From a virus (Duplodnaviria > Heunggongvirae > Uroviricota > Caudoviricetes), in the IMG/VR virus record IMGVR_UViG_2537561991_000009: a DNA stretch of 23,522 nucleotides; one strand, 5' to 3'. Made by a program: the position numbers. Positions 1 to 3,000 of this stretch are shown here, one piece after another. The number at the start of each line of letters is the position of its first letter. Positions within the stretch are counted from its first letter, which is position 1.

Positions 1-3000
1 AGCAGCGGATGAGCCTCACATGCCCTTACAGTGGCGGTAAATCCGGCTTCGGCAATGGCTTGCGGGGACACAGACGGGTTACGTATCAGGCGGTACGCAC
101 CTTCAACCTGAGCAGTGGACTGGGATGATTTCACAATAGAAAGACCTGCATGCTGAGCGAGAGAAGAGGCCAGTGACACAAGGCGTCGTGTACGACGCGG
201 ATCACCGAGACGGGCATGTCCAAACTGCTCGTTAGCCCATGAATAACAATCAGAAAGTACCATAACAGACCCGAAGAAAATGAAATATAAGAGAAGATCA
301 ACGGGTGAGGAAAAAGTTCAAAAAATCGCTGCCGGGGAGGAAGGAAACTACCGGATGGAAAGAGTCCCCCTAAAGCAGACTGACAGACATCACAAATCCC
401 CGGGTGGGGATTTGTGTATAAGAGACAGCTGTGCGGAGGGGCAATCAGCGAGTAGGTATATGGGATAATCGCGGATTCAGGTGCTGGTACTGAATTCACC
501 GGGAGGCACCCGGCACCATGCAATGGCACATAGCGCCACTCTCCAGCCCCTCTCCGGAGGGGCTTTCTTATGGACAAAAAAAGCCCGCGCTGGGAGACGC
601 GGGCGGCAAGGAATAAACAACAAAACGTGAAGTAATATTTCAGCTGGCGAATAATATCCGACAGTAATCACTCTGCGCAATAGCGCGGCCTTTTTCGTAT
701 TGCGGGCTGTTGTCTCTCTTCTGCCATTGTCCTGTAACTTCCGGACTTCAGCCCGCTCCTCATTTTACTCACAATATTATCCCGGCCGGGAGGATTCATG
801 GCATTTAAACACTATGATGTTGTCAGGGCGGTATCGCCGTCAGACCTTGCTGATGCACTTGCTCAAAAAATTCGTGAAGGATGGCAACCATACGGCGGGC
901 CGTTTTCTTCGTATACGGATGATGGCGCAGCACTTATTCAGGCGATTGTCGCAGAAGGTGATGTGGTCGTCAGTGGTGCAACTGAGCCGGAGTGGTACTA
1001 CGTCATCGTACTGGCCGGGCAGTCTAATGCCATGGCTTACGGTGAAGGGCTTCCGCTTCCGGATTCATACGATGCGCCCCATCCGCGCATTAAGCAACTG
1101 GCCCGTCGTAACACAGTGACTCCCGGTGGTGAAGTATGCGTATTTAACGACATCATTCCTGCTGACCATTGTCTGCATGATGTTCAGGATATGAGTACGA
1201 TTAATCATCCCCGGGCTGACCTGAGCAAAGGGCAGTACGGCTGTGTCGGACAGGGCTTACATATTGCCAAAAAACTGCTTCCGTATATCCCTAATAATGC
1301 GGGGATCCTGCTGGTACCATGCTGTCGTGGTGGTTCGGCATTCACCCAGGGCACGGAGGGGACATTCAGCGAGTCCACGGGGGCCAGTCAGGATTCGGCT
1401 CGCTGGGGAGTGGGTAAGCCGTTATATCAGGATCTGCTTTTCCGCACGAAGGCAGCATTGCAGAAAAACCCGAAAAACGTTTTGCTGGCGATATGCTGGA
1501 TGCAGGGGGAATTCGATATGACGAATGCCAGTTACGCCCAGCAGCCAGCAGCATTTCTTGCAATGGTACAGCAGTTCCGTGCTGACCTTGCCGGGCTGGC
1601 GGCGCAGTGTCACGGTGGAAGTCCGGCATCAGTCCCCTGGATTTGTGGCGACACGACATACGCGTGGAAACAAGAACACGGTACGCAATATGAAGTGGTA
1701 TATGGTGCATATAAAGGTAAAGAATCCCAGCAGATTTATTTTGTTCCCTTTATGACCGATGGTAGCGGAGTTAATACACCGACAAACAACCCGTCAGAAG
1801 ATCCTGATATTGTCGGGTCTGGTTATTACGGTTCGGCATCCCGAACGAACAAAAACTGGGTATCATCAAATCGCCCGACGCATTTCAGCTCATGGGCGCG
1901 TCGTGGCATTATTCCCGATCGTATGGCAACCGCTATTCTGAACGCAGCCGGGCGCACCTCAGCCTTCATTAGTGGTAAGGCACCGGAAATCAAACCCTCG
2001 CCCGGCGGCGACACGCCATCGGGGCCGTCTGAAGATGCATCCATACGCACAATCTCCCTGTTGCCGACAGCCGGAGACGCTGCTGCGCAGGGCTGGAGCA
2101 TTAAGAATGGCGGAATTCAGTTGTCAGATGGTGTATTTAAGATCACCAAGCAGAGCAATAAAGCCTGGTCCCTGACGCGCCCGGTGGATGACGCAGTCTC
2201 CCTGCTGACACGGGGTGGCAGACTGAGCTGTAAGTTTCGCCTGTCAGGCGCACTGACCAACAACCAGTTCGGTCTGGGAATTTATCTGTATACCGATGTA
2301 GCGTTACCTGACGTCGTGGCGATGACCGGGACTGGTAACCCGTTCCTGATGTCGTTCTTCACCCAGACCACAGACGGCAAACTGAATCTGATGCATCACA
2401 AGAAAGCAGGAAACACAAAGTTGGGCGAGTTCGGGAATTACAGTAACGACTGGCAGACGCTGGAGCTGGTGTTCACCGCCGGCAGTGCCACGGTTACTCC
2501 GAAACTGAATGGAGTGGCTGGCCCGGCATTCCAGGTCATAAAAGACAGTCTGACAGTGGGACTAAATGCACTGACGCTGACGGATATTACCAAAAATGCA
2601 ACGTATGGCGTTGAGATAGAAAGTCTGGTGCTGGAGATAAATGCACCGGCATCATCATAAAAAGTGAGCCAGTCAAATGGAAGGTATCGTTAAACTCACC
2701 GGTAGTGTCAGTGGGTCGTCTGAGACGCCTGCATGAGTTATCAGAGCCATCAGTACTTAACTGGTGGCTTTTTTATTGTTGTCAGCTTCCGGATAACGGG
2801 AGACGGGGTATGTACCAGATGGAAAAAATCACAACAGGTGTGTCATACACCACGTCAGCGGTGGGAACGGGCTACTGGTTCCTGCAGTTGCTGGACAGGG
2901 TTTCCCCGTCTCAGTGGGCGGCAATAGGCGTGCTGGGGAGTCTGCTGTTTGGGCTGCTGACATATCTGACTAACCTGTATTTCAAAATCAGAGAGGACCG

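Follow-up and report, generated by a model that had tools for sequence, protein, structure and literature searches.

The 23,522 nucleotides (nt) of IMG/VR virus record IMGVR_UViG_2537561991_000009 that were analysed here (the window) carry, close to their left end, an open reading frame (ORF) at 798-2660 whose product is predicted to be a NanS-p-type sialate O-acetylesterase, a member of a family already characterised. From its setting, it is a late-operon esterase, probably matched to the capsid of its own phage, that is now stranded in a defective prophage ridden with insertion sequences (IS). The account that we favour, and that as a whole we consider reasonably probable, is that the gene, carried by a lambdoid prophage whose tail is of the lambda type and whose head is of the ClpP-capsid-fusion type, specifies a sialate 9-O-acetylesterase, that it belonged to the late operon of that phage, and that its product was anchored to the capsid by an N-terminal DUF1737 domain. 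The identification itself is not new, as work on NanS-p esterases goes back to about 2014 and the exact protein is already in public databases, but the allele class gains a functional name with residue-level support. The co-variation of its N-terminal domain with head type is a cheap, testable argument for capsid-riding enzymes in siphoviral lambdoid phages, beyond phi24B.

Domain Architecture and Catalytic Residues

The gene occupies 798-2660 on the plus strand, exactly as a sequence-only reading of this DNA had proposed, and comprises 620 codons and a stop codon. Its ATG start is set by the conserved N-terminus MAFKHYDVV, which is common to all of the homologues examined, and by a ribosome-binding site, the Shine-Dalgarno sequence GGGAGG, 5-6 nt 5' of the ATG. 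The multi-domain NanS-p layout claimed in that reading was borne out by three Pfam domains that each scored above the curated cutoff: DUF1737 (amino acids (aa) 3-53, 42.2 bits versus a cutoff of 24), the sialate-specific acetylesterase family SASA (PF03629, aa 69-265, 48.2 bits versus 24.8) and DUF6645 (aa 470-580, 70.2 bits versus 27). Among PDB sequences, aa 62-382 matched the crystal structure of Escherichia coli NanS/YjhS (3pt5, E 2.6e-122 over 321 aligned residues) and aa 424-616 matched the crystallised C-terminal domain of the phi24B NanS-p (6yp6, E 9e-31), while the DUF1737 domain had no counterpart among the solved structures searched. These matches delimit, all on the plus strand, a DUF1737 domain of the variant that we term N2 (aa 1-54, 798-959), a SASA/SGNH esterase domain that also holds the catalytic blocks (aa 62-385, 981-1952) and a jelly-roll, lectin-like DUF6645 C-terminal domain (aa 431-620, 2088-2657). 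The N2 domain has a helix containing ADALAQKIRE and a loop containing GGPFSSYTDDGAALIQ, and this is the domain proposed to anchor the protein to the capsid, as a match to the ClpP-capsid-fusion head. The whole protein matched no significant family in NCBIfam, and in PHROGs only families of unknown function.

The catalytic residues were taken from structural surveys (PMC9487903; PMC10792757) and the activity data from reviews. The SGNH blocks of NanS are GQSNA (with Ser19), RGGSAF, MQGEFD and R-x-SHFS (with His301) (PMC10792757), and all four were found in the 620-aa protein: block I as GQSNA at aa 74-78, including the GQSN motif that had first drawn attention to the gene (aa 74-77, nt 1017-1028; Ser76 codon 1023-1025), block II as RGGSAF at aa 177-182, block III as MQGEFD at aa 235-240, and block V as RPTHFS (placed at aa 361-364; His362 codon 1881-1883). 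Both Ser76 and His362, whose absence would have refuted the original proposal, were conserved when the protein was aligned with crystallised NanS. The oxyanion arrangement specific to SASA enzymes, as described in PMC9487903, is also present, with Gln75 next to Ser76 and Q236-G-E238 in block III, and the block-V Asp is absent, as it is from NanS. Ser76 is thus the predicted nucleophile and His362 the predicted general base, with Gln75 and Q236-G-E238 as the putative SASA-type oxyanion hole. Architecture, sequence and the conserved catalytic Ser and His together support the NanS-p-type identity that had been suggested. All three domains are under purifying selection (median ratio of nonsynonymous to synonymous substitution, omega, 0.14-0.24).

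Every NanS-p allele assayed, i.e., seven from EDL933 and five from O104:H4, has been reported active on 9-O-acetylated N-acetylneuraminic acid (Neu5,9Ac2) and on mucin sialates (review PMC8065619), and the activity of NanS is maximal on 9-O-acetyl Neu5Ac (PMC9487903). Both facts bear on the proposal that the enzyme benefits the phage through some other O-acetylated glycan, such as O-antigen or O-acetylated K1 polysialic acid, on which a virion enzyme would aid adsorption or destroy the receptor, mucin sialic acid being a side activity. O-antigen deacetylation has been raised as an open possibility (PMC8065619), some SASA members act on acetylxylan and not on sialic acid (PMC9487903), and the lectin-like C-terminal domain is the most variable part of the protein, at 36% identity to the crystallised phi24B domain, as would be expected if it tracked variable glycans; in the window protein an aromatic residue is retained at three of the four positions proposed to bind sugar. 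Such a role would also be consistent with virion display. The closeness of the catalytic domain to NanS over its 321 aligned residues speaks for sialate, however, as do the substrates reported for the family, and nothing within the window points to a bacterial glycan substrate, so that we think this proposal improbable and retain a sialate 9-O-acetylesterase as the preferred reading.

The N-Terminal Domain and Head Type

The capsid-anchor part of that reading came from a comparison of 219 loci (218 and the window) drawn from IMG/VR and reference genomes, which yielded 147 de-duplicated full-length genes, their proteins being aligned with MAFFT, of which 74 came with a head module that could be typed. 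The gene occurs alongside four head modules that are unrelated to one another (lambda gpE, HK97-like, ClpP-capsid fusion and phi24B-type), and the N-domain exists as three variants, N1, N2 and N3, that differ chiefly in the helix and the anchor loop. At the typed loci, N2 was found with ClpP-capsid-fusion heads in 14 of 14 cases, N3, the phi24B type, with phi24B-type heads in eight of nine, and N1 with lambda or HK97-like heads in 50 of 51. The N-domain had an adjusted mutual information of 0.70 with head type and a pairwise area under the curve of 0.84 for a shared head type, as against 0.22 and 0.62 for the esterase domain, 0.25 and 0.68 for the C-terminal domain, 0.18 and 0.54 for the 400 bp upstream, and 0.20 and 0.54 for the lysis cassette 0-1.5 kb downstream (pairwise values for the flanks 0.53-0.54). 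When unique domain combinations were tested by permutation, the association of N-domain and head had p = 0.0005, and in the same test the esterase and C-terminal domains were not significantly associated with head type. Linkage alone predicts the opposite pattern, because the N-domain is separated from the head genes by the esterase domain, the C-terminal domain and the lysis genes.

That N-domains have been swapped is shown directly by opposite mosaics of synonymous divergence (dS). Between the window and locus L009, dS was 0.99 in the N-domain and 0.014 in the esterase and C-terminal domains, whereas between the window and locus L093 it was 0.08 in the N-domain and greater than 2 in the remainder. 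The window (N2) and strain E2348/69 (N1) share the same IS junction and 5' leader, and in each the N variant matches its own head type.

A physical basis for such matching has been described in phi24B, whose NanS-p (gp84) was found by cryo-EM and proteomics to be an abundant virion protein with a DUF1737 domain that forms hexamers on the capsid hexons, anchored via a loop tyrosine, the protein being later proteolytically cleaved (preprint, bioRxiv 10.64898/2026.04.10.717836). The DUF1737 domain of the window is 63% identical to that of gp84, and together the comparative data and the phi24B preprint suggest that these 54 residues would serve as a capsid anchor matched to the head type of the phage itself. 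On that reading the enzyme would have been built as a virion-displayed accessory and not as an autonomous moron.

The sequence-only reading had called the gene a metabolic moron, i.e., self-contained cargo that is irrelevant to the particle and whose sole role is lysogen growth on O-acetylated sialic acids, in which case DUF1737 would have some non-structural task, e.g., oligomerisation. In favour of that view, EDL933 needs its nanS-p copies to grow on Neu5,9Ac2, and mucin sialic acids are deacetylated by recombinant NanS-p proteins (PMC5923452; PMC8065619). In addition, the ORF is intact and under purifying selection though the prophage is broken, terminators bound the gene on both sides in the manner of a cassette, and there are up to 12 copies per genome. 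Against it, the leader has no sigma-70-like promoter in our scan, reported expression follows the induction of late genes, and the protein has no N-terminal hydrophobic segment (top 11-residue Kyte-Doolittle hydropathy 1.5 in the first 60 aa) and therefore no signal peptide, so that its release requires lysis. Nor is it expected of cargo irrelevant to the capsid that its N-domain variant should track head type far better than the neighbouring sequence does, or that gp84 should be among the most abundant proteins of the phi24B virion. The coupling of N-domain and head argues against independence from phage structure, and the moron label is therefore doubtful: the downstream terminator at 2743-2771 supports it in part, and the absence of a visible promoter, the N-domain/head coupling and the capsid-decorating phi24B homologue tell against it. 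Of the alternatives to a capsid-anchored esterase it is the most serious, but we consider it unlikely.

More broadly, and as a tentative proposal to which we would give a little less than an even chance, NanS-p proteins may be modular virion-displayed enzymes in which DUF1737 is an exchangeable adaptor to capsid lineages (N1 to lambda and HK97-like heads, N2 to ClpP-capsid-fusion heads and N3 to that of the phi24B podovirus), docking one esterase and lectin cargo onto unrelated lambdoid capsids. They would then be the phage counterpart of the haemagglutinin-esterases of animal viruses, the growth benefit to the lysogen would be a by-product, and the allele in the window would be a recent recombinant with N2 on a body of esterase subtype E2 and C-terminal type C1 that is otherwise found with N1. 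If these enzymes are indeed built to ride on the capsids of siphoviral lambdoid phages as well, the widely repeated description of these genes as metabolic morons or lysogen fitness factors needs revising, and Stx-type (Shiga toxin) and non-Stx prophages alike become linked to phage-mucus interaction in the gut.

Several points weigh against a capsid-matched, late-expressed sialate esterase, and they concern each part of it. As to the comparison, the loci are mostly E. coli prophages for which shared ancestry was corrected only in part, N1 occurs with two different head types, and two of the 74 loci are exceptions, L187 (N1 with ClpP-capsid head genes) and L211 (N3 with HK97-like head genes). 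These two may be recent recombinants, or mis-paired, non-functional combinations. As to the anchor, the phi24B result comes from an unreviewed preprint on a T = 9 podovirus, the "tooth" residue Tyr42 of phi24B aligns with Asp42 in the window protein (Tyr39 lies in the same loop), and the SISSP processing motif was not found, nor any SSP motif in either linker of the window protein. As to the enzyme, block V reads RPTH where NanS and most NanS-p alleles have RSSH or RASH, and the fourth proposed sugar-binding aromatic has been lost (F611 to V587). The RPTH form had already been noted in Stx2 phage 86 (PMC10462455). The nearest allele of an O157 Stx1 phage is 84% identical and those of the phi24B/933W type 53-56%, and none of the five complete genomes that carry the exact allele is that of a strain identified with experimentally studied NanS-p. 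As to transcription, no sigma-70-like promoter was seen between the IS end and the ATG (429-797) in what was a crude scan, and the ISEc13 element upstream may block or alter transcription of the esterase.

Operon Context and Expression

The placement of the gene in the late region was supported by its position upstream of genes for a holin, YdfR, a signal-anchor-release (SAR) lysozyme and Rz, with terminators on both sides. Relatives that are nearly identical have, ahead of the esterase, first Q (or a DUF1133 protein), then a DNA methyltransferase and then tRNA-Ile/Arg/Arg, and the series Q, tRNAs, esterase, holin, YdfR and lysozyme recurs. No tRNA was detected when the window was scanned; those ahead of the esterase in relatives sit beyond the IS and the window edge, as does Q.

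The terminators upstream of the esterase that had been called earlier are real as terminator-like hairpins, at 545-564 and 673-688 on the plus strand and at 604-583 on the minus strand. The first is strong (free energy, dG, -19.6 kcal/mol, z -3.9) and the second, in the esterase leader, is a weak terminator-like hairpin followed by a T-run (dG -9.1, z -1.8). A further strong terminator lies downstream at 2743-2771 and is followed by U6 (dG -17.0, z -4.7), and the scan of positions 1-3500 returned nine sites versus 3.0 +/- 1.6 in shuffled sequences.

The flanking terminators double as the 3' ends of small RNAs (sRNAs) of the STnc100/PasD and PasA types. The upstream sRNA gene is represented on the plus strand by its 3' two-thirds (429-575), which end in the terminator at 545-564. 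An intact STnc100, to which the Rfam match might have pointed, was rejected, as the IS removes the 5' part with the first hairpin and the score is 75.5 bits versus 139.2 for an intact gene, such as the STnc100/PasD-family copy at L002:5957-6147. Downstream, the plus-strand spacer between esterase and holin (2661-2809), which includes the terminator at 2743-2771, matched no Rfam family and has three differences from the E2348/69 spacer where the PasA sRNA was reported. A 2026 preprint describes the arrangement pasD, esterase, pasA, holin as common, and in E2348/69 PasD2 and PasA, which flank the esterase, rank with the most abundant of the sRNAs bound by Hfq. The PasD2 reported upstream of the E2348/69 esterase may itself be the IS-truncated form, in which case the IS end would supply its 5' end or promoter.

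After mitomycin C treatment, nanS-p transcripts measured by quantitative PCR rose 1-2.4 log together with the late genes (PMC10462455), and the layout fits a gene transcribed by Q-antiterminated polymerase. Late antiterminated expression, as originally proposed, thus stands for the ancestral design; in the copy in the window, ISEc13 lies between the gene and Q/pR' and may have changed it. In that ancestral design, the esterase would be transcribed when Q-modified RNA polymerase read through the flanking terminators, and its product would leave the cell only via phage lysis. Outside the cell, it would remove 9-O-acetyl groups from mucin sialic acids, which sialidases and the Nan pathway of surviving sibling cells could then use.

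The lysis cassette of the same operon (2810-5087, plus strand) consists of a P21-type class II holin gene (2810-3025), YdfR/DUF1327 (3030-3380), the lysozyme (3444-3977) and Rz (4536-5087). The holin begins MYQMEK, its two Met codons lying three codons apart in the manner of dual-start holins; the N-terminus of the lysozyme is hydrophobic, as is typical of SAR endolysins; and an ORF at 4840-5025, embedded in the +1 frame, has a lipobox-like LVVSAC, as expected for Rz1.

State of the Prophage

The left end of the window is the end of an ISEc13 element (IS4 family; 1-428, minus strand), whose transposase gene runs off the left edge and whose terminal repeat, closing with TGTGTATAAGAGACAG, ends at 428. 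It lies 370 bp upstream of the esterase and separates it from the Q/tRNA region. The junction at 428/429 is base-for-base identical to that in enteropathogenic E. coli (EPEC) E2348/69, although the esterase alleles downstream share only 87% identity; the insertion is thus either old or was moved by recombination.

Further 3', beyond the lysis cassette, lie genes for a DUF1441 small terminase, the terminase large subunit gpA, a lambda-type portal, a ClpP-capsid fusion, a cement protein and a full lambda-type tail set. The gpA gene (6013-10597, plus strand) is interrupted by an IS66-family element (about 6560-8895) with minus-strand genes for TnpA (8491-8895), TnpB (8147-8494) and TnpC (6561-8098), which leaves gpA in two parts, 6013-6645 and 8894-10597, and with its terminase split the prophage is therefore packaging-defective. 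The same split is found in FDAARGOS_1059, where TnpC, broken into two overlapping ORFs in the window, is an intact 512-aa gene. In the tail region, gpL (20559-21256, plus strand) falls into two ORFs (positions 1-96 and 104-206 of Pfam Phage_tail_L) because one nucleotide is missing by comparison with strain 602687, which is otherwise 100% identical; this is a real frameshift or could be a sequencing error. The 713-aa ORF of the ClpP-protease/major-capsid fusion (12136-14277, plus strand), with its Phage_capsid_4 domain, defines the head type that occurs with N2, and the Phage_cement_2 gene follows it (14365-14691, plus strand). As listed, the start of the capsid-fusion ORF overlaps the portal gene by ~170 nt, and the true start is probably further downstream.

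Damage of this kind raises the alternative that the esterase gene is a silent relic, a non-expressed leftover of a decaying prophage without current function, and ISEc13, which parts the gene from Q/pR' and truncates the sRNA upstream, would fit it, as would the lesions in gpA and gpL. The esterase ORF, however, is undamaged despite the broken prophage and matches copies in other strains at 100% identity, and the family-wide omega is ~0.2. E2348/69 keeps the same ISEc13 junction together with its abundant Hfq-bound PasD2 and PasA, so the region is transcribed there, and Q-modified polymerase could in principle read through the IS. We consider a silent relic very improbable, slightly more so than an esterase directed at another glycan. 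On the favoured reading of a capsid-matched esterase stranded in a defective prophage, with the terminase broken and ISEc13 separating the gene from Q/pR', any remaining benefit would therefore go to the host, via free enzyme.

The right end of the window (22000-23522) has a GC content of ~0.47. That this low-GC end marks a truncated prophage was considered and rejected, as strain 602687 has the start of gpJ in this place. A 116-aa ORF (22606-22956) with no Pfam match, annotated as a "hypothetical protein" in 602687, lies just ahead of that start, after gpI, and makes a stronger candidate true moron than the esterase does.

Distribution of the Family and the Allele

The gene had been described as typical of lambdoid prophages of enterohaemorrhagic E. 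coli (EHEC). Carriage by lambdoid prophages was upheld, but the restriction to EHEC was too narrow: megablast-detectable homologues were present in 2293 of 5426 complete E. coli genomes (42%), at up to 12 places per genome, and the family is therefore not EHEC-specific. There were also homologues in 353 phage records, and the closest alleles came from EPEC, enteroaggregative E. coli and O111 strains. The exact allele (at least 99% identity) is present in only five complete genomes (FDAARGOS_1059, 602687, O111:H2 12A, 55989 and O111:H21 15A), and 44 public contigs encode the identical protein, which in public databases is named only "DUF6645 domain-containing protein". A link to the assayed O104:H4 alleles through the 99% identity to E. 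coli 55989 was considered and rejected, as no outbreak O104:H4 strain is among the five genomes.

Comparison with Known Systems

Close relatives are the NanS-p proteins of 933W and phi24B (Z1466/L0105; vb_24B_21, i.e., gp84, source of the C-terminal domain 6yp6), with which the window protein shares the order DUF1737, SASA and jelly-roll C-terminal domain, the slot between Q (and stx, where present) and the lysis genes, identical catalytic blocks and an esterase domain of 70% identity. It differs from them in that overall identity is only 53-56%, the C-terminal domains being 36% identical, both linkers are unrelated and SISSP is lacking; its N-domain is N2 and theirs is N3, its phage was a siphovirus with a ClpP-capsid-fusion head and theirs is a T = 9 podovirus, and there is no stx upstream in the window. 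Its closest relative in a phage record is orf3 of Stx2 phage 86, at 89.5% identity, which has the same C1-type C-terminal domain and the unusual RPTH block. The NanS-p proteins of Stx1 phages (YYZ-2008/CP-933V type) also have a C1-type C-terminal domain, at ~83% identity, but the YYZ-2008 and E2348/69 alleles carry N1, with a loop five residues shorter (containing PVAITPYT-LMQ), and another esterase subtype.

Chromosomal NanS, which is encoded in the nan regulon, has a single domain and a length of about 326 aa. The window protein has the GQSNA, RGGSAF and MQGEFD blocks of NanS (YjhS, 3pt5) in identical form, and the same Ser/His dyad without a block-V Asp, but in its 620 aa it adds DUF1737 and DUF6645, it belongs to a prophage late operon and it has no N-terminal hydrophobic signal. 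Going by its sequence, it would work like NanS but is not NanS. Further afield, and as functional analogies only, the haemagglutinin-esterase-fusion protein of influenza C virus and the haemagglutinin-esterases of coronaviruses and toroviruses similarly combine an SGNH-type sialate O-acetylesterase with a lectin module on the virion (PMC9487903), a display that would hold for the window allele if its DUF1737 domain is an anchor, although these viral proteins have no sequence relationship to it. Closer to home, capsid decorations of the T4 Hoc type bind mucus (cited in bioRxiv 10.64898/2026.04.10.717836), again a likeness of function alone.

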